This document shows positions 1 to 58,013 of a stretch of 64,000 nt of DNA, one piece after another; position 1 is the first letter of the stretch; each line of letters begins with the position of its first letter. Under the pieces are notes generated by a model. That model did no database searches, had not been told where the DNA came from, and worked only from the letters and a program-made list of their open reading frames with translations. Origin of the DNA: Chiloscyllium plagiosum (taxonomy: Eukaryota); contig NC_057718.1 of the NCBI RefSeq assembly GCF_004010195.1, positions 47,367,535 through 47,431,534 of the forward strand. The letters are read 5' to 3'. A program made the position numbers and the translations under genes.

Positions 1-765
1 AATTGTGTACCTGAACCTTAGGTCTCTGTTCTACAACACTACCAGGGTCCTACCATTAATTGTACAAATCCTGACCTTGGTTGCATTACCAAAATGCCAT
101 GACTTCACATTTATCCAAATTAAACTCCATCTGCCACTCCTTAGTCCATTGGCCCAATTGAACAAGATCTCTTTGTAATCATAGATAACTTTCTTCACTA
201 TCCACTACACCACCAATTTTGGTGTCATCTGCAAATTTACTAACCATGCCTCCTATACTCTCATCCAAACCATTTATATAAATGACAAAAAAAAAAGTGG
301 ACCCAGGACCGATCCCTGTGGAATACCACTGGTCACAGGCTGAAAAACAGCCTTCCGCCACCACCCCTTGTCTCCTAATAAGTATCCCATTGGCATGCTC
401 ACCCTGAATCCCATATGATCCAACGTTACTAATTAGTAAACTATGCAGAACTTTGTCAAAGGCTTTACTAAAGTCCAAGTAAACAACATCTACCATCTGC
501 CCTCAATCTTTTTGGTTACTTCATTAAAAAACTCAATCAAGTTTGGGAGACATGATTTTCCTTGCACAAAGCCATAGTGATGATCCTTAATCAATCGTTA
601 CTTCTCCAAATGCATGTCAATCCTATCTTTCAGAATCACCTTCAATAAATTGCCCACCAACGGCAGACTGACAGGTCTATAGTTTCCAGGCTTCTCTTTG
701 CAGACTTTCTTTAAACAACAGCACAACATTAGCCACACTCCAGTCCTCTGGTACCTCACCAGTAT
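1..765 (-). mobile_element. CR1-clade (HER1-like) LINE fragment, reverse transcriptase region, decayed
   Basis: ORF 179..496(-) has DVVYLDFSKAFDKV and SKFADDTKIGG RT motifs; flanks continue as frameshifted CR1 ORF2. Confidence 0.92.
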
Positions 766-1705
766 GTGTAAACAGGAGAGTAGTTTGAATTTTGCAAATC
801 TAACTGTTGCTCAAACAATAAAATTATGGTCCTACAGTTTATTTCTGTACTAGCAACTTATTTATTGTCAGGTCTGCAAAACACAACAAAATTCCAAATT
901 TCCTCTTCTCTTTAGAGTGGTATTGTCATCCTGTAAGTGGTGGCCTGATTTATAGATAAATAAGTACAAACTGTAACAGATTGCTGACATGATCACATCA
1001 CACAAAGTTCATCCAAACTAATTTACTAATCTTCTGTAAAAATGGAAAGAGAAAATTAAACATTCTATCAGATATTCTTCAGCTGTTAGTACAAATGTCC
1101 CAATATATAATTATATCATGGTGATTTTATTCAAACAACTTAGATCAACTTACTGGAAGAATCCATTTGCAAACAGTACTATTAATTTTACCCATAAGCA
1201 CTCACAGCAATAAATCAACATCACTCGATCCTGCAGTGCTATGCAAAATCCAACAACAGGAAGGTGACATAACACTAGCATGCAGACGTGAATGACAGTT
1301 AATTAAAATGTCTGCCAGTAAATAGCTGTGAAATCAACAGACTGCTGCAGTTCATTGCACTTGGCATTCAAAACAAATATCAATAGAAATGAGTTCTCCA
1401 GCAGTCTATAACACTACGGATTGATACTTATCTAGAACAATTTATGACCATAATATACACTTCAACAGATTCCTAATAGTTTAAAAATATCAATACCAAA
1501 GACTGAGTTTACTGAATAATCTGGAGATAATGTTCTGTTGTTTAAATGACAGTTTGGGCTATTTTATCATACCAAATGTAAAACTTTCTGATGATAGTGG
1601 ATACCACCTTCATACAGAATCACAGTAAAAACAGTGAAAGGTCAAGATTGCAGTTTCTCTTTCTCTCTCTAATGTTTTAAATTCACTTCTTTTGAATATT
1701 GTTTT

Positions 1706-2042
1706 GGAAGATGGTGGTGTAGTAAGTAATGTTACTGGATGAGTAATCCAAACCCGCAGTCTATTGCTCTGGGGACATGGGTCAAAATTAAGAAATTTTG
1801 GAATTTAAAACAAAACTAGCATAAAGGCAACTATGTAACTGCTGTTGATTATCATAAAATCCAATTTAGTTCACTAATATGCCTTAGGGTAAGAAATCTG
1901 TCATCCTTACCTGGTCTGGCCTTCATGTGACTCCAGAGGCAGTACAATGTGATTGACTCTTAACTGCTCCCTGGACAGTTGGGGATGTGCAATTGGTACT
2001 GACTTAGCCTGGAGTGTCCACATTCCATGACTGAATTTTAAA
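1706..2042 (+). mobile_element. tRNA-derived SINE (family B), 3' tail shared with a CR1/L2-like LINE
   Basis: tRNA-like head GGTGGTGTAGTAAG...GGGTCAAA; core CCTTACCTGGTCTGGCC...GTGACTCCAGA; similar copies at ~26.15-26.49 kb (-) and ~31.67-31.97 kb (+). Confidence 0.8.
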
Positions 2043-2404
2043 AATCTGCTCTGCTGGGAACATTGACAGACTACAGACTTAACATAACTGTTATAGTGAA
2101 AGTGGTATACACTCAAACCATGGCCCTTGCTTACATTACAGAAGCCCCACTGCAAGTAGCAATTGTCACGGCTGTGACAGGAAGACCCTGAATAACACCG
2201 AACCTAGACAAAAGAAGTACTGTCAATCACCTCCGCATAGACAATGAAACTGTCTTGCTATCACTGGCTCTATGTAAACCTCCCTTGGCAACATACAAGT
2301 CTTCAATAAGAGTAAATGTCAACTTTATAATAATTACAGCTGAAAACCATAGCTGCATGCAATTGAATAGAGATTGATTTTAATATGTTCAAAGGGTGTG
2401 ACCA

Positions 2405-2665
2405 TTACTAGCTAAGTCAGCATTAACTCCCTATTCCCAATTGCCCTTAAGATACTGGTTAGCCTCCTCCTTTAACTTTTGCAGGCACATCCAGTGATAG
2501 TAGGAACAGAATTCCAACATGGTGTCTTAGCAACAGTGAAGGAGGGACAATATAGTTCCAGGTCAGGATGCATGTGATATGGAGGGGAGCTTGCAGAGTG
2601 ATGCCACCTGCTGCTCTTGTTCCTCTAATGGTTAGAAATTATGAATTAGGAAAGTGCAGTCCAGA
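2405..2665 (-). mobile_element. 3' end of CR1/L2-like LINE (family C), decayed
   Basis: Collinear similarity to the 3' ends at 40190-40520 and 53210-53520. Confidence 0.7.
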
Positions 2666-2959
2666 AGAAGAAAGAGTGGGGAGGAACAAGTAGTTGGCTC
2701 CAAATATAATCACTTTTAGTCAAATGCACAGAAACAGAAAAGCAAAGCTGGCAGTCCAAGAATGCAAAGGTTAAATGATATCACCTTATTTATCAGGGGC
2801 TTTCTCGAATTAGAGACCTTGGCAGGAAGAGTTACATGTTCCTGGGCAAGTCTTCCCTGGAATTGGGATAACTGACATAGGTAATAGAGTAGATCAGTAA
2901 TGTAGAGGGTACTAAGAGGACTATTGTTGAGATCCATGTGGGGACAAACAGTACAATGT

Positions 2960-3720
2960 AAAAATAGCTCAGGATTCATAGCTATGGAAAGATGGAATAA
3001 CATCATTGGGCATGTTGTTCTGTTATTGTTTCAGATCTCCTATTGACCAAGCATGATTTTACCAATTAGAACAGCAGAATTAAGAATTTCATAAACTATA
3101 TTACATAGCAGGACAAAGCAGAAGAAAAAAAACTGGGAAATGGAATCAGTTTGTTGAAAGATTGGAGCTTTTCAGTAAGGATGGGATTCACTTGAGCAAG
3201 TCAACTCAAATGTTTCAATGCTATTGCTAAGGAAACATTCAGAACATCTTTAAACTTATCAGACTGGCAAGGGAGAAAAATCAAAGAGCAGCATTACCTA
3301 AAGTAATGAAGCACATCATTGGACCCAGCAGGAAAGAATTTAATCAAGGGACAAAATTGCATCATCAGGCTATTTTATTAAATGCTTCTATACAGATATT
3401 GAAAGTTAGATTTAAGTTGACAGAAGATTATACAGTGCAACTGTAAAACCTTGAATTAATAGCCTCACTAGGCTGTGGCTAGGCTCAAATTTTGAATTTC
3501 AATATGTTGTTTGGAAAGGATAGGGTAGTTAATAGGGGGAAAAAGGGGAGCTGTCGTCAATGTTATAAGGATGTAACATATAATGGAACAAGGCATCATA
3601 CCAAGTGGAATGAACATTGTGGTAGTTTTCACTGAATATTTTTAATGCTAAAGAACCTCCAAGATGATCAGGAGAAGCCTTAAGCTAGTTTAGCTCATGT
3701 TCATTATATTTTAGTAAAGG
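2960..3720 (+). mobile_element. Very old CR1 5' remnant (ORF1 esterase tail plus endonuclease start)
   Basis: KDGIHLS at ~3177-3197 (SGNH-like DGxH); LFGKDRV..GKKG at ~3506-3560 (RKDR..GGGV-like); many stops. Confidence 0.45.
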
Positions 3721-3879
3721 AGTTGAAGCCAGCACAAGGGATGACCAGCCAGAAGAGCATTAAGTAGTTGATCACACTTAAAATATCTGCAATAGTTTCT
3801 ATAGTGGCCTGCACATCATTGTGGTGATTGGTGGTTCAAGGGACACCCTCAAATAGTAAGCAATCATTTGGAAATGAAC

Positions 3880-4030
3880 TTGAGAACATTCAATAGTAAA
3901 GCACAGGAACAGGTCCTTCAGCCCACATGTATGTGCCAACCGTGATGCCATTCTAAACTAATCCCACCTGACAACACATGATCCATTTGCTCCTATTCCC
4001 TATCTGTTCAAGTGTTTATCTACTCACATC
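3880..4030 (-). mobile_element. CR1 LINE 3' tail fragment
   Basis: AGCACAGGAACAGGTCCTTCAGCCCAC...CCATTCTAAACTAATCCCA resembles the other CR1 tails in the window. Confidence 0.7.
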
Positions 4031-4262
4031 ATTAATGCAAATTTGAAACACTACCTAAAGGGATCCTCATCATGCAATGATCATTCCGATGTAGAGGACT
4101 TTTGAAACTATTCAGTTCCTTTTGGGCGGTACCTTGCAGTTCCTGCCAGGTTGGATTTGATGGTGGGACCAGGAGCACACGAGGCCAATGGACTAATGAG
4201 TTCCCAGCTCTAATCAATGCTAGGGACAAGGAAGAATCGGATACAGTTACCCACTTTTGCAT

Positions 4263-6373
4263 AAAAGTTAAAGTTCTAAATTGGAGAAAGGCCAATTTTG
4301 ACAGTATTAGGCAAGAACTTTCACAAGCTGATTGGGGGCAGATGTTTGCAGGTAAAAGGACAGCTGGAAAATGAGAAGCCTTCAGAAATGAGATAACTAG
4401 AATCCAGAGAAAGTACATTCCTGTTAGGGTAAAAGAAAAGACTGGTTTAGGGAATGCTGGATAACTGAAGAAATTGAGGGTTTGGTTAAGAAAAAGAAGA
4501 CAGCATATGTAAGGTATAGACAGGAGAGATCGAGTGAATCCTTAGAAGAGTATAAAGGCAGTAGGAGTACACTTATGAAGGAAATCAGGAGGGCAAAAAG
4601 GGGACATGAAATAGCTTTAGCAAATAGAGTTAAGGAGAATACAAATGGTTTTTACAAATACATTAAGGAAAAAAGGATAACTAGGGAGAGAATAGGGCCC
4701 CTCAAAGACCAGCTTTGTGGCCTTTGTGTGGAGCCGCAGAAAATGGGGGAAATACTAAATAAGTATTTTGCATTAGTATTTACTGTGAAAAAGGATGTGG
4801 AAGATATAGAAAGTAACGAAATAGATGGTGACACCTTTCAAAATGCCCAAATTACAGAGGAGGAAGTGCTGGATGCCTTGAAATGCATAAAGGTGGATAA
4901 ATCCCTAGGACCTGATCAGGTGTACCCTAGATCTCTGTGGGAAGCTAGAGAAATGATTGCTGGGCCTCTTGTTGAGATATTTGTATCATCAATAGTCATA
5001 GGTGAGGTGCCAGAAGACGGGAGATTGGCTAATGTGGTGCCACTGTTTAAGAAGGGTGGTAAGGACAAGCCAGGAAATTATAGGCCAGTGAGTCTGATGT
5101 TGGTGGTGGGCAAGATGTTGGAGGGAATCCTGAGGGACAGGATGTACATGTATTTGGAAAGGCAAGGACTGATTAGGGATAGTCAATATGGCTTTGTGCG
5201 TGGGAAGTCATGTCTCACAGACTTGATAGAGTTTTTTGAAGAAGTAACAAAGAGGATTGATGAGGGCAGACTGGTAGATGTGATCTATATGGACTTCAGT
5301 AAGATGTTTGACAAGGTTCCCAATGGGAGACTGGTTAACAAGGTTATATCTCACGGAATACAAGAACTAGTCATTTGGATACAGAACTGGCTCAAAGGGA
5401 GAAGCCAGAAGGTAGTGGTGCAGTGTTGTTTTTCAGACTGGAGGCCTGTGACCAGTGGAGTGTCACAAGAATCAGTGCTGGGCCCTCTGCTTTTTGTCGT
5501 CATTTACATAAATGATTTGGATGTGAGCATAAGAGGTACAGTTAGTAAGTTTGCAGATGACACCAAAGTTGGAGGTGTAATGGACAGCTAAGAAGGTTAC
5601 CTTAGATTACAACAGGATCTTGATCAGATGGGCCAATAGGCTGAGAANNNNNNNNNNNNNNNNNNNNNNNNNNNNNNNNNGCATAAGAGGTACAGTTAGT
5701 AAGTTTGCAGATGACACCAAAATTGGAGGTGTAATGGACAGCTAAGAAGGTTACCTTAGATTACAACAGGATCTTCATCAGATGGGCCAATAGGCTGAGA
5801 AATGGCAGATGGAGTTTAATTCAGATAAATGCGAGGTGCTGCATTTTGGGAAAACAAATCTTAGCAGGACTTAGAGACTTAATGTTAAGGTCCTAGGGAG
5901 TGTTGCTGAACAAAGAGACCTTGGAGTGCAGGTTCATAGCTCCTTGAAAGTGGATTCGCAGGTAAATAGGATAGTGAAGAAGGCGTTTGGTATGCTTTCC
6001 CGTATAGAGGTTTACAAAATTATGAGGGGCATGGATAGGATAAATAGACAAAGTCATTTCCCTGGGGTGGGGGAGTCCAGAACTAGAGGGCATAAGTTTA
6101 GGGTGAGAGGGGAAAGATATAAAAGAGACCTAAGAGGCAACTTTTTCACGCAGAGGGTGGTATGTGTATGGAATAAGCTGCCAGAGGAAGTGGTGGAGGC
6201 TGGTACAATTGCAACATTTAAAAGGCATTTGGATGGATATATGAATAGGAAGGGTTTGGAGGGATATGGCCTGGGTGCTGGCAGGTGGGACTAGATTGGG
6301 TTGGGATATCTGGTCAGCATGGACAAGTTGGACCGAAGGGTCTGTTTCCATGGTGTACATCTCTATGACTCTA
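4263..6373 (+). mobile_element. 5'-truncated HER1/CR1 LINE with decayed ORF2 (RT) and intact 3' tail
   Basis: 369-aa ORF 4482..5591 with PGNYRPVSL, QYGFVRGKSCLT, DVIYMDFSKMFDKV, FADD; premature stop at 5589-5591; apparent internal deletion at ~6000; tail GGACCGAAGGGTCTGTTTCC...CTCTATGACTCTA. Confidence 0.95.
5648..5680. other. Assembly gap (33 N) with a duplicated overlap on both sides
   Basis: 5527-5647 is repeated at 5681-5801 with 2 differences. Confidence 0.95.
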
Positions 6374-7009
6374 AGTGCCCACATGTGAACAAATTGAAGA
6401 CAGGAGCGGACAGGCCTCCTACTTTGAACAATCCTGAGCAGGAACCTGGAGGGGAATTTCCAGTACCTCATTGGGAATACTGTCACATCTCCAATGCTTA
6501 CTCCCCCACCAGAGTTACTTTGCCAACAGCTACAGCCCCAGGCCATCTTCCAGAGGCTCCTTTCCACAATGATGATCTGGCAGCTGCGACCATCATTTTC
6601 TTTTTCTGGAACTCATGAAGGGAACATTTCCATAAAGTTTAAGCAGTATCTCCTATCCACTTTTTTTTGTCTGATAATTTTGCCTATGAAACTTCTGGAT
6701 TCAAATACTATTGCAATTACCAGTAAAACCAAAACATTTGTTTTAAATTATTCACTTATTACATGATTCATCTTTTTTTCCTGTTGCAGAAGTTACATTT
6801 TATTAGCTAAGAACGTGAGTCAAACTGTTTATTCTTTGTACAGCAATAATCTTAAATTTACTACAATGAGTTGACACCCCGTAACCACGTTTACTTCACC
6901 TATGGACATTAGATGTTAAATGTTTAAGAACATGAGTAAACCATGCTGGAAATATTTCCTGTGGTTTTGGTTTGCAAATTATGAAATGGATTTTGAAATA
7001 CTGTAGAAT

Positions 7010-8357
7010 GTGCTGTGCAAAAAGAGATTTACAAGGATGGTGCTCGAAGTGTCAGAGGTTACAATAATTGGGAAGAAATTGAACAGGCTTAAAGGTCTTT
7101 TCTCTGAGAAAGGGGAACTGAGAACTGAACTGAAATAAGTCTTTAATTATAAAAGGATTAAGTAAGGAATGGATTAAGTGATTACCGGGGGATTTTAGTC
7201 TACATTTAGATTGGGAAAATCAAATGAGGACAGATAGCTTAGATGAGGAATTCATAAAAGGTTTTCAGGAGAGATTCTTACAACAGCATATTCCAGTATG
7301 ACCAGACAGCAGGCTTTACTAGACTCAGTATTGACCAAGAAGATAGTTTTAATTCATCATCTCAGTGAAGATGCCTCTAGGCAACACTTACCAGAACATA
7401 TGCTTTTTGAAGGAGAGAAGAGTGTGTTTAAAACTAAAATTTTAAACTTAAAGGACAATTATGAGGGCATGAAAATCAAGCTAGCAAAATTGACCTAAGC
7501 AATTTAAGCTAAGGGGTCACTCAATAGAGTTAGTAGTGGATGTTTAAGGAAACATTTGTATAAGGATAGAATTGATGCATTTCAACAAGAAAGACAAATT
7601 CCAAGGAATGAACCCCTTATCTGTGTTTAATTAAAGGAACTTAAAGATAATATTAAACTTAAAGAAAATGGAAAATTGCATAAAGATGCATGGCAAGTCA
7701 GAAGATTGGGCAGAATATCTTTTAAAAACTAAACAATGAATAAGGGAGGAAAATTGGAACAAAAGAGAAAGCTATATAAAGATATAAAAACATTAAGACT
7801 GCAAACAGCTGTTCAATAAAGACAGCTAACAAAGTGACCATTGATCCCATAGAATGAGTTTGCAGAATCAATAATGGTAAATAAGCAGATGGCAGTTGAA
7901 GTTAAAAGATATTTTGCTTTGGCTTTCACTATACAGGATACAAGAACCATCTCAGAAATTGCTGTCAGTCAGGAGTTGGAAGGAGAGAGGAACCCATGAT
8001 TACTACAAACACCAGAAGAGTAATACTTGGCAGATTATTGGAACTCAGTGTGGTGCTGGAAAAGCACAACTGGTCAGGGAGCATTAGAGGAGCAGGAGAG
8101 TCAACATTTCGAGCATTAGCCCTTCATCAGGAATGAGCCATTCTGCAGTCCTCACTTTCTCCTAGATTGTTGGAACTACAACTTGTCAAGCCCCTGGGTG
8201 TGATTGGTTTCATCATGGGTCTTAAAAAAAATTGACCTGTGAGATAGTTGATGTGCGGGTCTTAATTTTACAAACATCATTAGATTTGGGGAGGTTCCCT
8301 AAGATTGGAAGGTAGCTTCTGTAAATCCTTCGTTCAAAAAGGGATACAGAAAGCAAG
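7010..8357 (+). mobile_element. Old CR1 LINE fragments (endonuclease C-terminus to RT N-terminus)
   Basis: ITGGF (GDF-like) at ~7181, TRQQALLDSVLT (PTR..AxLDLVL-like), and a KIGR..VNPSFKKG-like stretch; heavily frameshifted; interrupted by a mini-PLE at 8046-8163. Confidence 0.75.
8046..8163 (-). mobile_element. Mini Penelope-derived element (family A) with minimal hammerhead ribozyme motif, partly inverted
   Basis: Minus strand CTGATGA-A-GGGC-TAAT-GCTC-GAAA-TGTT (core at 8124-8130); TSD AGATTATTGGAACT 8032-8045 / AGATTGTTGGAACT 8164-8177. Confidence 0.85.
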
Positions 8358-8915
8358 ATCATAAGATACAGAAGCAAGATTAGGCCATTCAGCCTAACTT
8401 GTCTGCTGTGCCATTAAATCATTTGATAGGTTTCTGAATCCTAATCTCCTGCCTTCTTCCCATAACTTTTGATTCCCTTATCAAGAGCTTATCTCTGTCT
8501 TAAATACTAAGCATGAAACTATTGGGAACTATTTGAAATAAAAGATCCGAAACAGGGTGGACATGGAAAGGATGTTTTCTCTGATGGGAGAATGTAGAAC
8601 TAGGGGCAACTTTAAAAATAAGGGGTTGCCATTTATAAAGGGTTGCCCATTTCTGACAGATCGAAATAAGGAGAATTTTTATTTCTGACGGTTGACAGCT
8701 CTTTTTCTCATAAGGCAGTGGAGACGGATTCTCTGAATATTTTTAAGGTGGAGATAGACAGATTTTTGATTACCTGGGGGGAGAAAGCGTCAAAGCTTAT
8801 TGGGGCTAAGCAGGAATGTGGAATTGAGTTTAACATAGATCAGCTGTGATTTTATTGAATTGTGGAACAAACTTGCAGAGCCAAGTGGCTGGCCTGCCAC
8901 TCATTTTAAAATGTA
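8358..8915. mobile_element. CR1 3'-end fragments (minus-strand tail ~8358-8510, plus-strand 3' end ~8530-8915)
   Basis: Typical CR1 3' sequences (GGCCATTCAGCC..., AGAACTAGGGGC..., TTTAAGGTGGAGATAGACAGATTTTTGATT). Confidence 0.75.
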
Positions 8916-9199
8916 TACAGAGGTTCCACTCACTGAGGTGGGATGGGGGGATGGATGCAGAAGTGGGATCACAACTATAAAATAGTCACCTATAAATCCA
9001 ATTGGAATTCAGGGGAAATTTCTTTACACAAAGTAGAATGAAACTCATTACCACAAGAGGTAATTGAGTGACCAGCATTGATGCATTTAAGGGGGAAATA
9101 GGCCATTATGGTAAAAGCAATAGAAGGATATATTGATGGGGTCAGAAATAGTAGGTGGGAGTCCAATCATTTGGAGCACTAACATTGACCTATTACGTC

Positions 9200-9405
9200 A
9201 AACAAAAATGGAAACTGCTGGAGAAACTCAGCAGGTTTAGTATTCGTGAACTAAAAACAGAGTTAATGTTTCAAATAGTTCTGAGGAAGGGTCACTGGAC
9301 TGGAAATATTAACTGTTTTCTCTGCACAGATGCTGCCAGGCCTGCTGAGTTTTTCCAGTAATTTCTGTTTTTCTTTGTTTGAGGTCTCCAGCATCCACAG
9401 TTGTT
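9200..9405. mobile_element. Penelope-type terminal repeat (family B), inverted arrangement, degenerate hammerhead
   Basis: CTGAGGA-A-GGGTC-ACTG-GACTG-GAAA-TATTAAC at ~9281-9313; arms CTGGAGAAACTCAGCAGG / CCTGCTGAGTTTTTCCAG are inverted; same family as 27.4, 28.4 and 60.1 kb. Confidence 0.75.
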
Positions 9406-11933
9406 TTATTTTATTTACCCATTGAGTCAAGTTGCATTGTTTTTATGTTCTAAATTATTTGTAGTCTTTACTGTAACATTACCTGACATGTACCACAAAT
9501 TGATTATGTGTCCAGGGATTTAAAGTCTCTAAGCTGTGCATTTTCTTACTCATCAGCAAACAAGTGCATTACCAAAATGATGTCATCGTGTAGTGATGTT
9601 ACTGCATTATTCCATCATTATCACACCATAACTGGTGGTTTGAGTGGAACTCAAATGATGCTGTTGATACAATACACAATGTAGTTTGACCAGGTTAGTT
9701 TACAGGAGAGCAAAGGATTTGCTGAACATTCTTCCTTTGGCTCTTTGTTGAACTTATAGCTAATCTCATTCCTATATTCTGTTCCCAAAAAGCCATTTGT
9801 CTGCAGAGTTATTTTTCGTTCAACCTCTTTTTGCAAAAAAGAACACATGCTCCAACAACAAAATGATTAAAACAATTTCTCATAACCTCTCTTCTCTCAA
9901 TGACTACTTCAACATAAAAGGTCCCTAGTCAGTAACTTTCCAACTGGAGGAATAAGTCATTTTATTTACCTTGTAGAAATTGTCCATAACATTGTATGAC
10001 TCCACGGAATCTCTTCTTTTTTGTTTTTTGGGGAAATACTCCCAATAGCTCCACCTTTTCAACATAAAAGACTTTTTAAATGCTGGGTGTTGTTCAAATT
10101 AAAATTACCCTTTTATTGGTTTGAATGTCTTGGTATATTTCTTTGTTGCTATGCTCTAGGTTCCCTTTTATAAAACCCAGTCCAAATGTAACTTCATGGA
10201 AAGCATTTTGGAAATGCTCTGGCCATATCACTCAACTGTCTCGCATCTCCAAAAGGAAACTCCTATCTCTAGCGTGCTTTTATTACTACATTATCTTTAT
10301 CTACTACATCTCCATGGTAATTTTTTCCATTAAGTCTTCTCTGCGCTTTTTAAAAAAGAATGCAACTGCTAGTCTCCAATTCTATTTCTCTATTGTGTTT
10401 TCTCTGAATCTGTAGGTTGAAATTTACACTCCTCATGTTGTGAGCTTGGAGGAAGGATCGGCTGGGAAAGTAGAAGGGAACTGCATTGGGAAGACTGCAC
10501 AATGCATTCCTGCCACTACAGAACTTACTTTGATACAGGTTGGGTTGTGGTTTAACTGTCCATTCTATATAGGTAGACAGCCAATTAACATTGGAAGGTT
10601 CCAATTTAGGGTGATGCTGTAGCCTAACAGGTGAAGTGGCCTGCTCAATGGAGGCAAGCTCCCTGTGAGTACCAGCTCAATGGAGGCAAGCTCCCTGTGG
10701 CATATCATGGGACCAAAGCTGGTGTTTCCATGCAATAATGACAGGATTACAGGCAGGAAAGATCACACTTGCCACCCACCTATTTTACTACAGGAGTTTC
10801 CCCTCTGCTCCACAAGGCCTAATGGCCCTAATTCCGACAACCAAAAACCTGTAACTCCATCTCTGACAGTATCTCCATTTTGCTCTTATAGTATCTGAAC
10901 TGTTGCAAACCACCATCTTTCAAAGGGCTATTAGGGTTGGACAATAAAAGCTGCCCAGCCAATTATGTCCACATCCCCTTAACAAACTGCCTCAGAAGTG
11001 ACCACTTCCTCCGGTGGAATTGTTGAGGTGCCAAAACTGTTGGCCATCAATTAGAAGGCCACCTCCACCATGATTGGGCCTCTGGTCTCACTGCTAGTAA
11101 GTCACAGTCCTGAAGCCTATGTGAAAATTCAGTGCTATATTACAACATTCAATTCCATTTTAAATCTCTGCCAGAATGTACCAGCTAATGCAAACAGGAT
11201 TTTTTTTCTCAATTGCAAAATCATGAGGCAAAAAAATCATAAATGGTCTGATAAAGGGTACGATTAAAAATGTTCGCTTATTTGTCTCCATCCAATCCCA
11301 AATCAAATTTCACACATTTTAAAAATTTTATTTTCAATTACTAGTATCGATGCATTCCATTTCTATTTTAATACCATATGCTTATTCCATTGTCACAGAT
11401 ATTCCAGGTAACTACAATAATCACATTTGCTTCTCTCATTTATTGCATACACACAAGCACAGAAGGATTAGAACAATGGCCAGTTGTAAATGCTATTCAA
11501 TCAGCTGTCAGGAAAATCTTTGACAATAAAGTTTATTTAGCTGTGACAGTTTTAGTCTAACCACAAATGAAATAGGAACTTTAATTTGTGTGGCAGATTT
11601 GTCATGTATACAACAGGTTTTATCAAATCCTAATATGAAACACAAAGCCCTGGATTGAATTAATTTAAAATACAATCACAAAGTTCATTTTGACCTTCAA
11701 ACTCGGTTACTAACTGACAATGACTCAGTAAATTGTACTTTTCCTCTCCCACCATTACTCATAAAAAGATAATGACTACAGTTTATGGAATTTCCTGTAC
11801 CGAACACATCAGCAATTTAAAAGATTGGCAATAGCAAAGGCACTAATACTCATCCCCTGTAAGATCATATTTAACTAGAAGAAATTAACCCTTGGTCCTA
11901 CTTTGCTGGGTTAATGTTAACCCACAATAATGC

Positions 11934-12237
11934 ATTAGATTAGATTCCCTACAATGTGGAAACAGGGCATTTGGCCCAACAAGTCAACACCTGCCCTCTG
12001 ATGAGTAAACCACCCAGACCCATTCCCCTATCCTACATTTACCCCCAACTAAGGCATCTAACACTATAGGCAATTTTGCATTGCCAATTCACCTGGCTTG
12101 GACGTCTTTTGGATTATGGGAGGGAACCCATGCAGACACAGGAGAATGTGCAAACTCCACACAGACAGTCACCTGAGGTGGGGATCAAACCTGGGTCCCT
12201 AGCAATGTGAGGCAGCAGTGCTAATCAGTGAGCACCA
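11934..12237 (-). mobile_element. HE1 V-SINE, moderately diverged
   Basis: ATTAG-type tail; V-domain GTGCAAACTCCACACAGACAG; tRNA-like head GCAGCAGTGCTAATCAGTGAGC. Confidence 0.92.
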
Positions 12238-12619
12238 GCTTTGTGTTATTTTTGTAAACTAACAATCAAGATCTTAAAAGACATTTCAAAAAACATTCAA
12301 ATTGGAATGACTGCTTCACTGATAATGGCATTTGATCATAATTATGAATTATGATTTCTCCTTTCTTCTGTTGATCTTGAATTAGGAATGCACTGTATAT
12401 TACATTTAATTATATTAAGTTCTTCATCTCCTGGACATTAGTTTACTATATTCCCCACCACTGACAAATGGTAATTCCTTGCTTACAGTATACCTCTGAA
12501 ATATGTGATGCAATTATTCTGTAATAACAATGGCAACATAGCTTTTTTATTCTGACATTTCATAGTCCAGTCAAACTGATCACTCCAGGATTATTGATTT
12601 ACAAGTTTATCTTCAATCA

Positions 12620-13660
12620 GATGAAAACCGTCATTTTGTCAAAGCTTTTTATCTTGCATTCATCAGGACACTTTACAAGATTACAAATTGAAGGGGAGGA
12701 GACAAACATTTATACTGTGTGACAGAAGAGTGCTGATTGGTTGTCACGTGGACTCTGATTGGCAGAAGCATTGCCATGGCGAATGCACCCATTAGTGCTA
12801 ATATACAGTGAATAGTGAGGCTTTGCCAAATTTTAAAACAGGTAGCTGGATTCTGATTGTTCAGTGCTTTGCTCTGAAAAACAAACCAGTGCACGGTTGT
12901 CACCTACTTTGTTGACTTTATATGTGTACAGTACATGTACATGTTCCCTAAGTCTGCAAAGAACAGGGACTTGTGTATTTATATTCGTAGCTTCCAGTAC
13001 ATGCTTGTGTACCACATTGAGAGCCTGACTGACAATCCTAAATTTCCTGAAGGGCTTTCACCCGAAATGTTGATTTTCCTGCTCCTCAGAGGCTGCCTGA
13101 CCTGCTGTGCTTTTTCCAGCACCACACTCTCGATTCTAATCTCCAGCATTTGCACTCCTCACTTTCACCCTGACAATCCTAAATTGTTGGTCAGAATAAT
13201 TCCCCTCACATTCAGGATTATCCAACAAATGTTTTCCAATTAGAGAAACATGTCTAATGTTAGATACAGTATGATGAGTTTTGCAAGCGTGGGTTGATTG
13301 GCTATGGTCAGTACCTTGCTTGTTAAGAACAGCAGAGGGACATGCTGTTCGATACAACTTGCCAGTACAATGTATATACTGTGATGGAATCACACCAGAA
13401 CTAAAATTCACATACCACATTGCTTATTTGTGCGATAGGCAGAACATCTTTTTGGCTTGATGGCAGCATCTTATTGGTGGCAAACACCATCTGTGTCACT
13501 GGTACATTATAGCAGCTTGAAACAGCTAGCTGCATCCGTTACTCAATCATTTGAGATCATTTATCCTTCCAGGATAATCTGAGGCAGACTCACTTTTCAG
13601 AACCAAGAGTGAATTGCCACAGGGCATTCCATGAGTTTACATGCTTTACAGTGAGAAATT
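12620..13660 (-). mobile_element. Penelope-like element 3' part (GIY-YIG endonuclease plus 3' repeat), decayed
   Basis: Minus ORFs give SLIGKHLLDNPEC..YSDQQFRIV and HVLEATNINTQVPVLCR (PLE endonuclease C-terminus); degenerate GTC-CTGATGA...GAC hammerhead at ~12636-12669. Confidence 0.8.
13045..13169 (+). mobile_element. Mini Penelope-derived element (family A) nested in the older PLE
   Basis: Perfect 16-bp TSD CTGACAATCCTAAATT at 13029-13044 and 13170-13185; hammerhead core partly deleted (CTGA-AGGGC..CCCGAAA). Confidence 0.88.
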
Positions 13661-13699
13661 TGATCATGATAGCCATACATTCTCCATAGTGTCAGCCAG

Positions 13700-14350
13700 G
13701 GACAATGGTAGCACTCTTGCCTCAGATGTAAAGGACAGAAGTTTAACCACTGCGGGACTTGTACTCAACAATTTAGGCCCTTGTACCATTACAGTACTAA
13801 GGAAGTACAGTACCATTACAGCACTGTTAAAAGGTACCATCTCTCAGATGAAACTTTAAACTGATGCCCTCTCTGTCCTCTAGTGGGCACACGATTATTT
13901 TGAAAATCAGCTTGAGTTTGTTCCTGGCGTTCTCCCAAAAATTATGAAATCAATATCACTAAAACAGATTATCGAACCATTACATTGTTGTTTATGGGAG
14001 CTTGCTGTGTGCACATTGGCTGTCATGTTTCTTACAAAAGTTAACTTCAAAATGACATCATTGATTTTAAAGCATTTTTGATAGAAATCATAGAATCCCT
14101 GCAGTGTAGAAACAGGCTATTCAGCCCATCAAGTCCACACTGACCCTCCAAAGAGCATCCCACCCAAATGCACCCCTTTACCCTATCCCTGCATTTCTCA
14201 TAGCTAATTCACCTCACCGACACATCCCTGGACACTTTGGGCAGATTCGCATGACTAATCCATCTAACCTGCACATCTTTGGACTGTGGGAGGAAACTAG
14301 AGCACCTGGAGGAGAATCTTCTGAAGTTGTGAAAAGACTAATAGAAAGGT
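13700..14350 (+). mobile_element. Deu-domain SINE (SacSINE1/AmnSINE1-like), interrupted by HE1
   Basis: Head GGTAGCACTCTTGCCTC; Deu-like core ATCACTAAAACAGATTATC...GGGAGCTTGCTGTGTGCACATTGGCTG; tail resumes CTGAAGTTGTGAAAAG after the HE1. Confidence 0.75.
14081..14315 (-). mobile_element. HE1 SINE 3' half
   Basis: ATCATAGAATCCCT tail; AAGTCCACACTGACC; CTAACCTGCACATCTTTGGACTGTGGGAGGAAAC. Confidence 0.88.
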
Positions 14351-14854
14351 AGATATTTTAATATTCCTACAACTACAATACCACAATACAAAAAATGATA
14401 TCACAAGGTTCTGTATATTGAGTGAGGTGGGAAAATTAGAAAATTAGAAAACGACACAGTTATTGCATTCAGTGTTTAACTTTCTACAGAATAGAAAGTA
14501 AAAGCTGAACTGAATAAATTAAGTATTTCCTTATGAAGCATGTAGTTATAAGTCCTACAATTATAGTATAATTATTAGTATTGTAATGATGTTATGTAAA
14601 AATGAAAATATAATGTGACACAATAATCAAACATCAGCTAGAAATATTCATGTCTTTGTCAGAGGATATGAAGTATTATAAAAAGAGGTAGAAAGTGGAA
14701 TCTTAAATACTGGAACATTCTTGAGGCACATCAGCAAGTATATTACTTGGCATTCCATCATTTACCCAAGTACAACCCTTTCCCACCAACATCCCATTTT
14801 CAAATCATTTAATTGTGTTAACTGAACGAATATTTTCACAACATACATGTCAGC

Positions 14855-15310
14855 GATTGCTTAGTTGGTAGCATTATGGTCTTTAAGTCAAAAGGTTATG
14901 GGTTCAAGTCCCACTCCAAGGATTAAACACAAAATTCAAGCTGAAAATTGAATGCATTATAGAGGGAATGTTGGACTGACAGAGCTACTGTCTTTTAGAT
15001 GACATCCTAAACCAAACCATGTCTCTCTTCTAGGGTGGATGTTAAAGCTCCTGTCACACTTTTGAAGAATTGCACGGGAATTACGTCTGATGTCCTGTTG
15101 ATTCGTATTCCCTCAAATCAAATTAATCAAAATAAATTTCTGATTATTATCACTTTATTGCTTATGGGTGATGTTGTTTGCAATTTGATACAATATCTCA
15201 CACTGCAACTGTGACTGCACTCCAAAAGTACTCACTGATCTGTAAAACCAACATGGGACATCCCAGGGTTGTGAAAGATATTATATAAATGGCAGTCTCT
15301 CTTCCTTTCT
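14855..15310 (+). mobile_element. Full-length, old Deu-domain SINE (SacSINE1-like)
   Basis: A-box-like TTGCTTAGTTGG and B-box GGTTCAAGTCC; Deu-like body; tail GGGACATCCCAGGGTTGTGAAAGATATTATATAAATG. Confidence 0.78.
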
Positions 15311-16211
15311 TATAATTGCACTATGCTTTGACATGGAAACTTATGGACTATCTGTTAAATTCTCCAAAGCACATATGGTGTCATCACTGGGAGTTTCCAA
15401 TAACTAGGATGACTAAATATGTGGAAAACAAAACTGAATCACTCAGAAGCAACATTGCCACTATATTTTGGAAGCCCTCACAGATAATCAAGTCAGAATT
15501 CAGTATCCACCAGCAAATCAGTCACCAGTTACATGTACTAGACAAATTCACATAGATATATTACTATCTTTTTTTATCATGGCAGCTTTCAATTCTGGAT
15601 TTACTCAGAATTCCACATATTCATCTACCCACAATAACATCTGATTCCCTGACCTAACAATTATCTATCCACCTCACCTCCTTAAAATTATTCTAGGACG
15701 TCCATCTCTACCATCTTCCAAGGTAGAAAGTTTCAAAGTTGAGCAATCGTAGAAAAAGAAATTCCCTCTTTCTTTGTCCTGAAAGGACAATTACTAATTT
15801 TTAAACATTGGTCCCTAGCTCTGGACTCAACCACAAAAGGAAAACATCCTGGCCCACATTCACTTTTATCAAGACAAATTAGGATCTTACATACATCAAT
15901 TAAGTCACCCTTCATTTTTCTAAACTCCAGTAGAAACAAACCCAGTCTGTCTGACCTATCTTCATAAAACAACCTGCTCTTCCAGGTATCACTCCAGTAA
16001 ACCTCTAAATCTCTTCCAATGTATTTATAAACTTCCAGAAATAAGGAGATCAAAACATAAACATTATTCAAGATGTAGTCTCACCAATGCCTTGTATAAT
16101 TAGTTTTCTGTTCAATTCCTCGTGTAATAAATGATAGCCCCATAGCCTTCTTCATTGCTTGCTGTACCTTGATACTATCCTTTTGTGACTCATATACTAG
16201 ATCACCTTGAC

Positions 16212-16411
16212 TAAAGTGATCCAAAGTGGAGGTCAAGACCCCAAGTCGGATTGCGAGTTTAGACTTTGGGGTAATGATCGCCATGTCAACTGTGCCGGTG
16301 ACCCCGGCACTCTCAGGTTCTCATCCTCCTTCTCTCTATTCTCACCTAGGATCTGTGATCATTTTCAAGCTTTGAAACAGGGTCACAGAAAGACAAGTTT
16401 GAGAACCACTG
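16212..16411. mobile_element. hAT/Charlie-like non-autonomous DNA transposon remnant
   Basis: Right end AAGTTTGAGAACCACTG (reverse complement CAGTGGTTCTCAAACTT, typical Charlie TIR); left end degenerate; interrupts the CR1; no clear TSD. Confidence 0.6.
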
Positions 16412-16544
16412 ATACAGATCTCTCTACACTGGATTTCTGCAGGCACTCTCTGCTTTGTTAAACCATGTGAACAGCTTCACATTTTCCCATGTTAAATTCC
16501 AACTGCCACGATTTCACCCACTAGCTCAAACTAAACTATTTATA

Positions 16545-16669
16545 TCTGATAAAGGGCTTATGCCCGAAACGTCAACTCTCCTGCTCCTCGGATGCTGCCT
16601 GACCTGCTGTACTTTTCCAGCACCACACTCTCAACTCTGATCTCCAGCATCTGCAGTTCTCACTTTCTC
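16545..16669 (+). mobile_element. Mini Penelope-derived element (family A) with hammerhead motif (G8>A)
   Basis: CTGATAA-A-GGGC-TTAT-GCCC-GAAA-CGTC; TSD-like CTATTTATATCTGA 16536-16549 / CTATCTATATCTGA 16670-16683. Confidence 0.88.
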
Positions 16670-17164
16670 CTATCTATATCTGACTGCAATGTCCTCTTCA
16701 CAACATACATTCTTACCTATTTTGTGTTACCTATAAATTTAGTGACCATGCTTTCTTCATCTAACTCATTGATACAAGTTGTAAAAAACTGAGACCCCAA
16801 CACAGACTCCTGTAGGATTTCACTCATCAACATCCTGCTGAGCAGAAAAAGACCCAGTTATGGACATTCTCTGTATCTTTCCAGTCAGTTGGTCAATCTT
16901 CACTCCCTGATGATATATTCACACCGTACTTTATGCAATAACCTTTTATAACCAGAGGAAGTGGTGGAGACCAGTACAATTGCAACATTTAAGAGGCATC
17001 TGGATGGGTATATGAATAGGAAGGGTATGGGGGAATATGAGCCAGGTGCTCTATAATGACTACATGACCTTGTCAGATGCCTTCAGGAAATCCAGTACAG
17101 TACATTGACAGGCTCCCCTTTTAGTTCAACACAAGCTACTCTTTCATTTGTTTTTAATTTAACT

Positions 17165-17281
17165 TATTTTTCTAATCAACCTGTTCAGAGATGTTATTAC
17201 ACACCTCCGGAACAGGTGGGACTTGAACTCAGGCCTGTTGGTGCAGGGATTGAGGCACTACCACTGCACGACAAGAGGACC
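17165..17281 (-). mobile_element. Short (~115 bp) tRNA-derived SINE
   Basis: Minus strand GTGCAGTGGTAGTG...GAGTTCAAGTCCCACC...TCTGAACAGGTTGATTAGAAA; related copies at 44274 and 44567. Confidence 0.7.
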
Positions 17282-18140
17282 AAGTTACTCCTTCAAAGAA
17301 ATTAAATAAATTGACTAAAAGTGATTTCCCTTTCACAAAACCATGCTGACGATTCCCGATTACCTTGAGATACACCCCAGCCCTCAAGCACCCAGCTATA
17401 ACCTCTTTAATGATCTATAGTATTGTAAAGCCCGCCCACTTGTCAGATGTGCTATCCTCAACGTCTCCGCCATGTGTACACATACGGGCAGTACAACTTA
17501 TGAACTTTGGAACTAACTGTAGCCAGTAAACGATTGGGGAACTTCAACGCTTTTTACAAGAAACCTCCTCCAATGTCATCTGACCACTGACGTTGCTCTT
17601 CTGACTAAGCAGATCTGGGGCCGTTGGGTTACTTTATAATGGGGAGGGGTCTGTTCACAAACCCCTAAAATAACAACTCTACAGCCAGAAGGCACTGGTG
17701 AAAATAATAACTTGCCACATTTTCTTTCCCGGGGGGAAAGTAAGTGAGAGAAAAAGGAAAAGCCCGCTTAAGAACCTGGCGCACAGTGATCTGTCAAGAG
17801 TGAAGGCTCATTCAAAACTAACAAGTTATCGCGAAGCAGAAAGACCTGATTAAAACAAGAGCCTCCTTACCCACCGAGTACTAGATGGAGCAATCACTCC
17901 CTGAGTTCATGATTCCCGCTTGTGGACGGATCCCACACACAAAACACGAACCCGTCCAGATCCCAGACCCAGTTGGACTCTCGGCTATTTTTTCGACTCA
18001 GGCGGAAAACAATAAAAAGTACGAAAGTGTGGCCATCACTATTGATCAACCCCCGGTTGGCCCGGGCTTCCCCGACTCCCTGTCACCAGGCTCTGGTGCT
18101 GGGGTAGGGGGTCGAGTTGCTGGCACTGGGGGGCACTTAC

Positions 18141-18248
18141 CTAACGCCCTGCCCCGGGACGGAGGCTAATCTCAGCTGCGGAAGAAGCGGCGGCCTCTCT
18201 ATATCCAGCAGTCGAGTCTCTCCAGCTTTTCGAATACTTGCGGAACAC
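18141..18248 (-). other. ATF3: Putative non-coding exon 1 of an ATF3/JDP2-family gene
   Basis: Starts ~30 nt downstream of the TATA box; contains no ATG; ends at consensus donor TTAG|GTAAGT (exon end 18141). Gene identity inferred only from promoter architecture. Confidence 0.55.
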
Positions 18249-18256
18249 CGCTCGGG

Positions 18257-18412
18257 GTTGCATCACTGCCTTTATATACAGTGAGTGCGAGCCTCTGGTA
18301 TTTACAAGCCCAGTCCCCTGACGTCATTCTATTTATAGAGAAGGGAAGCTTTCTCGTTGGTGATGCAACCAACCCCAATCCAAGGAAACTGAGCTGCCCG
18401 CACCATAAGAGG
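18257..18412 (-). promoter_or_regulatory. ATF3: TATA promoter with MEF2, CRE, FOX and two C/EBP-ATF (CARE/AARE) sites, ATF3-like
   Basis: Minus strand: CTATAAATAG (18329-18338), AA, TGACGTCA (18319-18326), GGGGACTGG, GTAAATA (18299-18305), TATATAAA (18271-18278), TGATGCAAC (18257-18265); second TGATGCAAC at 18361-18369; CArG-like CCATAAGAGG at 18403-18412. Confidence 0.65.
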
Positions 18413-19406
18413 ATCACATCAGTTTGATTAAAGTCAGCGATGGCATAGTAATGAAGAAATGTGGCCCCGAGCAGCGAAATGACCGTAGATAGCAGGCATC
18501 TGATGTGGAAACGAGCTGAACACTGAGCTTTAGGCTGCTTATTTAAAACAGACAAGAGATTTCCAGGACACTGTTGTTTTCGAAAATATGTATCTCATTT
18601 TGTGAACAATTATAGACTCCTTCGTGCTGACTGCGCGGCTTTTCTTTGACACAGATACATTTTCTAATGTATCATTTCTTGTGTTTTATGAAGCGGGGCA
18701 AATCGAAACCTGACAAGCCACTTCAGAAATAGGAATTCAAAGCATGTAGCTTTTTTTTCCATTTCCTAGAATTGAAAGCTCTGGCAAAATCCCGGATATC
18801 TAACCGGGATATTTATTCTCCAGAAGTTACGACCTGTAACTGAAATTGTGGAACAAAAACAAAATCAGCCCAACAGAATGTAACAATCATTATAACATTA
18901 CTTTAGCAAATCCTTATATTACAGTATAACGCCCAGATAGTACAGATTGTTGATTACACAAAAAAAGGCTTTGATCAAAGGATCTCAAAAAGTTGGTTCG
19001 ATTATTTTTCAAACTGCCAACCTGAAATAACCAGTACTCCAATATAAAACTCAGTACGAATTCAGTATATAATTCGTACTCCAAAATAAAATTAATTTAA
19101 AACAGCATCAACGCAGAACTGTTTCTAGGTATTTCTTGGAGAAAATTAGACTTCAGAAACTCCGTAATTACCATGATCACTGAGTATCGCTGATTTTGAC
19201 CTTTACACTGATTCGAACCTCCCTATCCGCTTATTCATACCTTAAAAACATGCAAACGCATGTTAAAACTGATGACTGACTGTATATTGCTGGCATCTGA
19301 TGGTCTGTTATGTATTATGTGATCATTGAATTGACTTGTTTTTTATGACTACGAATGGTGGAATTTGTTTCCACGGCGTTATCCCCTCAATCACTGCTCT
19401 TTATAG

Positions 19407-19534
19407 CGCGTTTATTCATTGAATAGATCGGAGTCCCACATAAATTCACCAGACTCTGAGAGAGATCACAACTCTTCTGTAGTAGTCAACAAAGTTTGAA
19501 AAGGGAATTTGATGACCTGGGTTCCTTTACAAAG
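19407..19534 (+). ncRNA. Candidate exon of a divergent non-coding transcript
   Basis: Acceptor CTGCTCTTTATAG| and perfect donor AAG|GTAAGT; stops in all three frames; lies inside the CpG-rich region. Confidence 0.35.
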
Positions 19535-21779
19535 GTAAGTAATGTTTAATTATGCCTCGTCGAATGTCAGATTTTGAGGAATTTACCCGATATTGGTGAA
19601 ATTAGTCATTCACGCTTTGGAATTACGTAAGAAATGCTTGAAAAAAAACGGAAGTCGAAACGTTCGTCTTTCGGGATTATTGTACATTCACTTCTTCAAA
19701 CGTTTGTTAGCAGTTCAATATGTAATCGACTATTCTGATCTTTTAGGGACGTGTTTATTGATGTACATTTTGTACAATGTTTCCCTTACTTAATAGCAGT
19801 TCCAAATTTCCTGGTATAAAGTGGACATTAAATAGCGTAGTTATAAATAGAGGTTTAAATTTACATAGAGAGGCATAGAGAGAACATTAGAGGCGACAAC
19901 GCAAGACTCATAGGTATTAACATTGGTGCTTCCTACGAGGAAACGGTTGTTATTTTCCTGTTCAAGTCTGTTTGACACAGTAGCCTAAATTGTAATTTTA
20001 ATGACTTTTGAATATTTACAATTTAAGTTTTATATTTGTGTTCTGATTATTGAATGGTAAGTTCTTGGTTGATTGTCAGTCAGTTGCACATAAGGCAGGA
20101 GAAGTTCATTGTTGGTTTTCTAATCAGGATAAACCACAATCCCCAATATAGGCAACTTGGATTTAGGGTCCGGTGTTGAGTGCACCTTGCGTCTATTAAA
20201 TTACAGTCGCAATGCTTTTAAGCTATAGAAATCCTTTGAGACAGACATCAAATGAACTTTGTCACAACTTTAAGTATAATAGCAAAGTGGAAAAAACAAA
20301 TTTAGAACTTTTTTTGTGGAATATAAGTTAGAAGATTTCGCAACACTAGTAACTCCCACCCCCACCTTTCAAATGTTTCAGTTAAGAGTTCAGTGTTAAA
20401 TGGATGAGCAGCTGCACACACACAATTCCCGCCCTGCTCCCCTTTTGCAGTCTTTTCATTGCCCCTCAAAAATAATTTGGTTTTCACCACAATTTTCAAC
20501 CAATTATAACACACAGGTGAGTTTCTCTGAGTAATGGCCAACTATTCTTCTGACTTTATTTTGATCTGTTTCGTAAGTTTACTAGTCTCCCATTTGAGCG
20601 TAGACATTTCGACAAAACATTGAGATTTTCTCAAACATTTCTTCCAAATGATTTTGTCTTGATTTTGTTTCCTCTGCTTTCACAAATCCCTTTAAAATAT
20701 TAATGTCTGTAAATGTCTCAATATTCCCAGTGCAAGCAGTTCTAAGAAGTTCAATATGTAGAAATATATATGGTTGTTTTAGAGTATTCACATAGTTTTG
20801 TTGTTGGGACAGAATTTCAGAAGGACTCCAAAAAACTAAATTTTTAATTACCATTTGTTGGAAGGCGCTTTCCAGAAATGCAACTGAGAATCCTATGTTA
20901 TTGAGTATTATTTATATTCTTCAGTTGTCCATAGGTTGTCAATCAAATGTGTGTCTAAAGAGACCACGCTTATTGATTTCACTTAAATAGCCATAGAATT
21001 CCTTATCCTCACTTTATCAGAACTTTAAAGTCACATTTATTATGCATTTTGAAGGTGTGTGTTACTTTGTGGAGACATCATATTCACTAAATGTTCATTA
21101 AGAGACAATTACTTACAGTAAACTGTTAATATTATTGGATAGAATATCTTTTACTTTATAATGTAGAAGATACATGCTAAAGCCAAAGCATTCAAAGTGG
21201 CAGAGTCATTTTTCAATAAACGAGATATTAACAACCATACAAAGCATATCACCATTGCTTGTGCATCTTTGATCTGAAGTGCAAGTTTAGATTCATTACA
21301 AGCCAACAATTCTTCTAAAAGTACTGCTGGGTGATGTTACCCAAACACAGCTACTTACGATTTTCATGGTTGAAGATTTGTCAACGCATTACTATGTGAA
21401 CCACCCTGCTAAAAGATATTGGATAATGTAGTGGGTCAATGCTTAGCAATTCCTCATCGATCAGTTACCTGAAAAGGAGAGTAAGGTAATGCCTACGTAG
21501 TTTCAACAATCAGATTTTTTTCACTTGTCTTTGAAGAGGGAGACAATCGCTGCATCTCCAAGGTTCTGAGGCAATTCCACTTTCCTCCAACTTGCTGTAA
21601 ACAGATCTGTAAACATATCCAGGATTTGCATCCTTGTTTTTGGAATGCCATCTATCCCAAGAGTGTTGTCTGACTTTAATTATGCCGCTGTAGTCTTGAT
21701 TTTTTTTTGCTGACTGGGGATTCCTCCAATGCAGACTTCACTTTCTAGGAGATATGTGGAATTCATGTTTCACACCATT

Positions 21780-48873: not shown

Positions 48874-50349
48874 ATACCAGCACCAAACGTTTGTGATTTT
48901 GAGGACAAAGAGTTTTTTTTGTCACTTATTTAATCCAGAATTAAAACACAATACCTCATACATGCACAGTTACACAAAAAAAGTTTGGCTACAGGTAAAG
49001 GTAAAACTGTTACAGTCTTTGGTTAACTCAGAAAACAGAATAGAAAATAAAGACTATGATGATTTTAATGCTTTGAAGTGAAACAAGGGACTTCTAAAGT
49101 GAAGGATTTCCAGCCAAAAGTGAGTTTTTTTTTATATAGCTGAATTTCTCGAAGTTTGGTTCTGATGTAAATGATTTTTTTTTAACAGATTGGGAGACTC
49201 CTTCTCTCCATTGAGGCTTCCTGCTTATGACGTATTGCTGTTAATTACCTTGAATATCCTGCAGCTAGTTTTATGATCTTCAGCAAGGGAGGGAGTCTGC
49301 TCTTGGCTTTGACCTCAAAACAATAGAATTAACAGAGGTCAGGAATCCTGGTCTTAAGGAAAGGGAAAAAGTAAATGAGTTGTGTCACAAAGACAAGTCT
49401 CTGCAGATCTTAATCTTCTGGTAAAGGTGTGGGTGCAGAATGATCATTACATATTAGGAGAATCAAAAATGAATGAATGAAAGTGTTAATCAAAGTTATT
49501 TTAAACAATAGCTGCATTTTCGTAAAAGACAAAGCCTTCCTTTCAACAGGCAGCCAGAGAACTCTGTATTGCTGTCAGTCAGCTATTCTCACTGACCAAA
49601 AAACACCAGACGTGTATGACTGCTTTGTGTTTTTGTATGTCCTAATGTAAACCTGAACCTTTCACTTAGATGGTGTAACCATTTTAAAAGTATTTTGAAG
49701 GCTATGAAAAGACTTGTATGATGCCACAGAAACACCAGGCAGTTAAAATAAATAAGAAAGGAACAATGGGCAGACTGGAAATGGTCTGAAGAAACAATTA
49801 TGTCAAGACACTTAGCAACAAGAACTTAAAGCAAAGCTGGAGATAAATACGTCGTAATCAACTTTCCATGCCATTGTTTTGACATGCTCACTGCTGTGAT
49901 GTTCCAAAGCTGAAGATCAATTTTAGCTTCTTGGTGTCAGATGCAAAATATTCTTGTTCTTATTGTGCTGCGAAAGAATATTTAGAGTTTGCTGAAATAG
50001 TTTCTTATTTAAGAAACATCTTACTGTGTCTTTATTTTCAAAGCTTCAAGAGAGAGCAAGATAATGGCGTTATATTGCTTCCTGTGATGTTGCATTCTGT
50101 CTCCTCACAGTCAGACCAAAGCTGTTATATAATGGGAAGATTCTGCAGAAGTTTCTTCCAGCACCATGTGAGGATGTCATGGTTAATGTCAGGACATTGC
50201 AAAAAAGAGGTTTTTACAATCCTAGAATGATACAGAAAGAGATTATACTTTTCATTCAAATGTTATGATTAATATTGAACTTGCTATCAAAGCACTGTGT
50301 GCAAATAAAAATTATATACTAAACATTATTAACTGCAAATCCAACTGGA

Positions 50350-56965: not shown

Positions 56966-56967
56966 CC

Positions 56968-57690: not shown

Positions 57691-57711
57691 TGTGCCCACC
57701 CCCCCTCCCCC

Positions 57712-58013
57712 NNNNNNNNNNNNNNNNNNNNNNNNNNNNNNNNNNNNNNNNNNNNNNNNNNNNNNNNNNNNNNNNNNNNNNNNNNNNNNNNNNNNNNNNN
57801 NNNNNNNNNNNNNNNNNNNNNNNNNNNNNNNNNNNNNNNNNNNNNNNNNNNNNNNNNNNNNNNNNNNNNNNNNNNNNNNNNNNNNNNNNNNNNNNNNNNN
57901 NNNNNNNNNNNNNNNNNNNNNNNNNNNNNNNNNNNNNNNNNNNNNNNNNNNNNNNNNNNNNNNNNNNNNNNNNNNNNNNNNNNNNNNNNNNNNNNNNNNN
58001 NNNNNNNNNNNNN
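57712..58013. other. Assembly gap (302 N)
   Basis: Run of N. Confidence 1.

Follow-up and report, generated by a model that had tools for sequence, protein, structure and literature searches.

The minus strand of the window analysed here, a 64-kb stretch of Chiloscyllium plagiosum DNA, probably carries the canonical (P2) promoter of a cartilaginous-fish ATF3 gene, together with the putative non-coding first exon of this gene. Judged from its letters, the region is a deeply conserved copy of a known and well-studied promoter. A previous sequence-only reading had proposed ATF3 or its paralogue JDP2, and this identification is probably right. We favour ATF3 because the matches that are not explained by consensus words are to ATF3.

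In the direction of the minus strand, the module begins with an inverted copy of a predicted C/EBP-ATF response element (CARE, also called AARE). This copy is oriented on the plus strand (18358-18369), reading TTGCATCA at 18368-18361 on the minus strand and TGATGCAAC at 18361-18369 on the plus strand. It is followed by a predicted MEF2 consensus site, CTATAAATAG (18338-18329), and 2 nt further by a perfect CRE, TGACGTCA (18326-18319), detected by motif search. Both sites are recorded without a strand and are read here on the minus strand. The 8-mer GGGACTGG (18317-18310, minus), an exact word that human ATF3 also presents just past its CRE, and the heptamer GTAAATA (18305-18299, minus) come next, ahead of a TATA box, TATATAAA (18278-18271, minus), also detected by motif search. 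The other predicted CARE, TGATGCAAC (18265-18257, minus), lies directly behind this TATA box, 5 nt past TATAAA, as is required of an ATF3 P2 promoter. All of these minus-strand motifs, with the 2-nt spacer between MEF2 and CRE, as well as the oppositely oriented upstream copy of TGATGCAAC, had been pointed out in the sequence-only reading and were recovered at the places it gave. The full CRE (18326-18319) and GGGACTGG each occur only once in the 64-kb window. Two exact copies of TGATGCAAC are present, namely the one following the TATA box and the inverted one upstream, and all these sites are located inside 115 bp. The centre of the MEF2 site is 11 bp from that of the CRE, i.e. about one helical turn.

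Taken one by one, these words are unremarkable. Of 500 shuffled windows, 121 contained a full CRE, 278 TGATGCAAC and 385 the MEF2 site. Their combination, however, is far beyond chance. MEF2-N2-CRE, CRE-N0-6-GGGACTGG and CRE..TATA-CARE were each obtained in 0 of 500 whole-window shuffles and in 0 of 20,000 local shuffles of 501 bp. For the ordered series MEF2-CRE-TATA-CARE, with motifs picked post hoc, the Markov expectation is 5e-10 per window, and for seven ordered words with generous gaps, a set picked after viewing both the shark and the human sequences, it is about 1e-18 per window. Since the motifs were picked after being seen, the shuffle and expectation figures overstate the rarity of the cluster, though not enough to matter. 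A search of metagenome contigs for the MEF2-CRE-GGGACTGG pattern gave 0 matches.

The human ATF3 promoter sequence, as printed in Table 1 of PMC11272585, was compared with that of the shark by eye and with short probes, the human spacers being counted by hand. The human P2 promoter shares seven elements with the shark, arranged alike in order and in orientation: inverted CARE, MEF2, CRE, GGGACTGG, GTAAA, TATAAA and TGATGCAAC. Three spacers are identical in the two species, i.e. 2 nt between MEF2 and CRE, 23 nt between GTAAAY and TATAAA, and 5 nt between TATAAA and the CARE. The other spacers differ: CRE to GGGACTGG is 4 nt in human and 1 nt in shark, GGGACTGG to GTAAA is 9 versus 4 nt, and the inverted site to MEF2 is 90 versus 19 nt. 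The shark module is thus the more compact one. Its CRE lies 61 nt upstream of the CARE, compared with 69 nt in human, the distance expected for the ATF/CRE of a P2 promoter being about 70 nt. The proposal that motif order and spacing had been conserved since the jawed-vertebrate ancestor thus holds for order, orientation and the 2-, 23- and 5-nt spacers, but not for the remaining distances. The human layout given in the sequence-only reading (a MEF2 site 2 nt before the CRE, GGGACTGG after it, then TATA, 5 nt and TGATGCAAC) agrees with the printed table, and the human promoter moreover has the upstream inverted site, which had not been claimed.

At the level of individual letters, the likeness is uneven. 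The human MEF2 site, CTATTAATAG, is a perfect consensus and stands likewise 2 nt ahead of the CRE (PMC11272585), whereas the human CRE at -90 is the variant TTACGTCA and that of the shark is the perfect TGACGTCA. GGGACTGG matches human ATF3 at 8/8 positions, and the shark 9-mer TGATGCAAC is identical to the human -20 site (PMC2673429). At the inverted CARE, the 11-mer TTGCATCACCA of the shark minus strand matches human ATF3 exactly (11/11) at about -200, according to the ChIP-209 primer of PMC2673429 and to PMC11272585. This 11-mer has one match in the window and appeared in 6 of 100 shuffles, 8 of its letters being the CARE itself. The heptamer GTAAATA had been labelled a forkhead site. Human ATF3 reads GTAAACG at this place, so only GTAAA and the 23-nt distance to TATAAA are common to the two, which makes forkhead binding doubtful, and we dropped the label of a conserved forkhead site. 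Colinear likeness to human ATF3 beyond the consensus words is nevertheless present in GGGACTGG, in the 11-mer and in an upstream block described below, as judged by eye and with short probes.

This upstream block, first spotted by eye, is a 17-nt stretch (19420-19436, minus) that agrees at 16/17 positions with human ATF3 at about -920. A 16-nt piece of the human -926/-928 primer (PMC2673429) has one match in the window, at 19436-19421 on the promoter's strand with 1 mismatch, and the 17th base also agrees by eye with the sequence of PMC11272585. In the shark the block is placed at about -1190, i.e. about 1.2 kb upstream, versus about -920 in human. When up to 2 mismatches were allowed, 3 of 100 shuffles matched the 16-nt probe. 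With the human GC content assumed to be 50–65%, 0.003-0.011 such blocks are expected between the upstream regions (1.75 kb versus 2 kb), and 0.17-0.68 when the whole window is counted. The block supports ATF3 without proving it. Another upstream word resembling the human sequence, at 19006-18995, was attributed to chance (37 of 100 shuffles).

Downstream of the TATA box, we can predict a non-coding first exon at 18141-18246 (minus), equivalent to exon A of ATF3. In human ATF3, exon A constitutes the 5' UTR and the start codon is located in exon B (PMC3278981). The putative start, at about 18246-18241, was placed with the human CARE numbering of -21/-13 (PMC10055071) and the TATA distance. The putative exon contains no ATG for every start from 18250 to 18240 (length 100-110 nt) and ends at a 5' splice donor, TAG/GTAAGT (18135-18143, minus; boundary 18141/18140), whose last exon base is 18141 and which fits 8/9 consensus positions. 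As far as its letters go, the putative ATG-free exon of about 105 nt ending in AG/GTAAGT that had been described beforehand is present. This donor is the best within about 770 nt downstream of TATA; donors as good number 50 in the window. About 540 nt inside the putative first intron, two ARE-like words and a half-CRE are found at 17588-17611 (plus).

The first intron of the gene would exceed 18 kb, running off the left end of the window, whereas human ATF3 spans about 16 kb in all from P2 (PMC2655689). Neither exon B of ATF3 nor exon 2 of JDP2 was seen in the window. By eye, none of 30 acceptor-like sites downstream opens an ATF3- or JDP2-like frame. A bZIP basic-region pattern was absent from the six frames of the window, which gave one unrelated leucine repeat on the plus strand. 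Pfam was run on 106 of the 108 minus-strand frames of at least 38 aa in 1-18200, two being dropped for crossing an N gap. Only 2 of the 106 showed weak, unrelated matches below the cut-off, a LINE giving RVT_1 and a repeat giving PHD_3. The 18 kb downstream (1-18141) thus yielded no coding exon of ATF3, of JDP2 or of a recognisable host gene, and the identity of the gene is deduced from the likeness of its promoter. Among 24 sequencing runs listed, 15 contain part of this sequence and none of these 15 is recorded as RNA; the shares of 0.04-0.36 obtained for runs presumed to be RNA were left out of the evidence.

JDP2, the sister gene of ATF3, has to be considered here. Its stress-inducible TATA/AARE promoter would work by the same mechanism, with a layout that predates the duplication of the two genes. 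In human JDP2 variant 3, a TATA box is followed within a few bases by a functional ATF4-responsive AARE directly before exon 1, an arrangement conserved in mammals (PMC7714084), and the shark likewise presents TATA and then AARE ahead of its putative exon 1. JDP2 is thus a real rival, and TATA plus CARE cannot separate the two genes. Non-coding first exons are also present in mouse Jdp2, with a length of 65-199 nt (PMC2724284). Furthermore, the shark core promoter carries, on this comparison, some JDP2-like letters. A JDP2 mutagenesis primer, whose wild-type letters were inferred from the mutant, has TATATA before the site and CC after it, both as in the shark, whereas human ATF3 has TATAAA and GC; TATATA stands 8 nt from the site in the primer, compared with 7 in the shark, the TATA-to-site spacer of human JDP2 variant 3 being slightly longer than that of the shark (PMC7714084). 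The upstream region of JDP2 may share the remaining motifs, the comparison with JDP2 covering the TATA/AARE core only. However, it is with ATF3 itself that the 11-mer at the inverted site, GGGACTGG, the spacers of 23 and 5 nt and the 16/17 block agree (JDP2 being compared at the core only), and letters outside the consensus would not usually persist in both paralogues through the gene duplication as well as the separation of the shark and human lineages. On balance, we consider a JDP2 promoter unlikely.

The mixture of ATF3-like and JDP2-like letters in the core promoter could also suit a third paralogue of the ATF3/JDP2 type that arose in the genome duplications of early vertebrates and that cartilaginous fish retained while mammals lost it. 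Sharks do keep paralogues that mammals lost. This would be quite improbable here, as no such gene was seen and the non-consensus matches to human ATF3 better fit direct orthology. Stress genes often contain CRE, MEF2, TATA and CARE motifs, and with no coding exon found within 18 kb downstream, an unrelated stress gene could have converged on these motifs, or the region could be a dead promoter remnant without a gene. We give hardly any credit to these two explanations. Convergence leaves unexplained the order, the orientation, the three identical spacers and the non-consensus letters in common, while perfect motifs and retained CpG (observed/expected ratio of 0.79 versus 0.26 for the window) argue against a dead remnant and for an active, unmethylated promoter.

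If the region is the ATF3 promoter, its regulation can be proposed by analogy with human. Induction of the human -104/+36 promoter by ER stress and by amino-acid starvation depends on ATF4, and mutation of either the CRE or the CARE lowers this induction, both being needed (PMC10055071). JDP2 binds and represses human ATF3 through both the CRE and the CARE (PMC2673429), and ATF3 represses its own gene (PMC3278981). In the shark, ATF4, probably with a C/EBP partner, would occupy the CRE as well as the CARE that follows the TATA box, and would thereby activate the gene under ER stress or amino-acid stress. JDP2 and ATF3 would then take the same two sites, which would place a repressor beside the TATA box, shut the gene off and limit the response to a short pulse. 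The inverted CARE probably provides a further input for ATF4. CREs are targets of CREB, ATF2 and c-Jun, which could also act here. MEF2 would lie on the same face of the helix as the dimer at the CRE, and may add an input from calcium and the p38/ERK5 (MAPK) pathways as well as damping by class IIa HDACs. A comparable arrangement exists in the promoter of c-JUN, an immediate-early bZIP gene like ATF3, in which a MEF2 site adjoins a CRE-like (ATF/AP-1) site a short way upstream of TATA. The c-JUN gene differs in that the order of the MEF2 and CRE-like sites is reversed, no CARE is known behind TATA and the gene is intronless.

In the literature searched, partly available as full text, the human ATF3 promoter elements tested are the CRE (-90), the CARE (-20) and a distal ARE only. 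This literature, which leaves aside most subscription papers, gave no report of a MEF2 site in the promoter of ATF3 or of JDP2, nor any mention of the inverted CARE and the -920 block of human ATF3. Most classic ATF3 promoter papers are likewise outside this literature, so these three elements may already be known. The same search yielded no study of an ATF3 promoter from a cartilaginous or other fish. We propose, with somewhat less than even confidence, that the shark-human comparison exposes functional ATF3 elements beyond the model of CRE plus CARE. These would be a MEF2 site at a fixed distance of 2 nt from the CRE, the two acting as one element, a second, inverted ATF4 site (at about -200 in human), GGGACTGG and the 17-nt block near -920. 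The same proposal includes that, with the TATA/AARE of JDP2 taken into account, a layout in which an ATF4 site follows TATA and the gene is silenced by the protein that it encodes predates the ATF3/JDP2 duplication.

ATF3 occupies a central position in the responses to stress and injury and in nerve regeneration. Should the region be the shark ATF3 promoter, the wiring of the integrated stress response into ATF3 and the negative feedback of ATF3 would already have been present in the jawed-vertebrate ancestor, some 450 million years ago. That an immediate-early promoter is conserved is unsurprising in itself. The value of this one lies in pointing to elements of the human promoter for which no study was found; in practice, it supplies a short list of conserved human-promoter words that can be mutated in existing reporters.

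The promoter is located in a CpG-rich stretch of moderate GC content (17500-20000, no strand; CpG observed/expected ratio of 0.79, GC 0.415), compared with a ratio of 0.26 for the window, as expected of an unmethylated promoter. A CpG-rich setting and a non-coding first exon, putative in the shark, are common to this region and to human P2, although the GC content of the shark promoter region is only about 42%. Further upstream, at 19000-20000, the CpG ratio reaches 0.89-1.19 at only 35–36% GC. This AT-rich stretch looks unmethylated and would be missed by a GC-based island caller. A second MEF2-type site (19841-19850) and a CArG box (SRF; 20143-20152) lie upstream of the inferred start, at distances of about 1.6 and 1.9 kb, respectively; such sites are common, with 12 and 8 occurrences in the window.

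On the minus strand at 52583-52695, a distal cluster, located 34 kb upstream of the promoter, groups TGATGCAAT (C/EBP-ATF), TGAGTCAGCA (NRF2/MARE-type), a CACGTG E-box and two TGACGT half-CREs. It lies within the CpG-rich stretch 51500-52800 (CpG observed/expected ratio of 0.89). Four independent motif classes, picked post hoc, came together within 150 bp in 0 of 300 whole-window shuffles and in 0 of 300 chunkwise shuffles. The cluster looks like a candidate ATF4/NRF2 stress enhancer or a distal promoter. Human ATF3 has an ARE (NRF2 site) at -3.5 kb (PMC2800224), an ATF4-bound site at -15 kb without reporter activity (PMC10055071) and its P1 promoter at -43.5 kb (PMC2655689). Assignment of the shark cluster to P1 is unsupported, no donor of 8/9 or better being present there, and the likeness of its distance to that of mouse P1 (34.5 kb) is no evidence for P1.

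A full p53 site was not found at up to 2 mismatches, and Rfam gave 0 matches on 12300-64000 (51,701 of the 64,000 bases). A direct repeat of about 25 nt, with copies 32 nt apart, is present at 10643-10700, each copy containing a p53 half-site-like word (10652 and 10684). The loose grouping at 49129-49400 of TATATAAA, a C/EBP-ATF-like word, a half-CRE, an NF-kB-like word and a p53 half-site is probably due to chance. Repeat debris makes up much of the window, about 12.6 kb of which is self-matching, and the long frames elsewhere in the window resemble, by eye, LINE debris. Assembly gaps (N) are located at 5648-5680, in the putative first intron and inside a LINE, and at 57712-58013. Decayed LINE fragments with reverse-transcriptase-like frames and several SINE-like families are spread over 4262-6373 (plus), 1-760 (minus) and 55100-59600.
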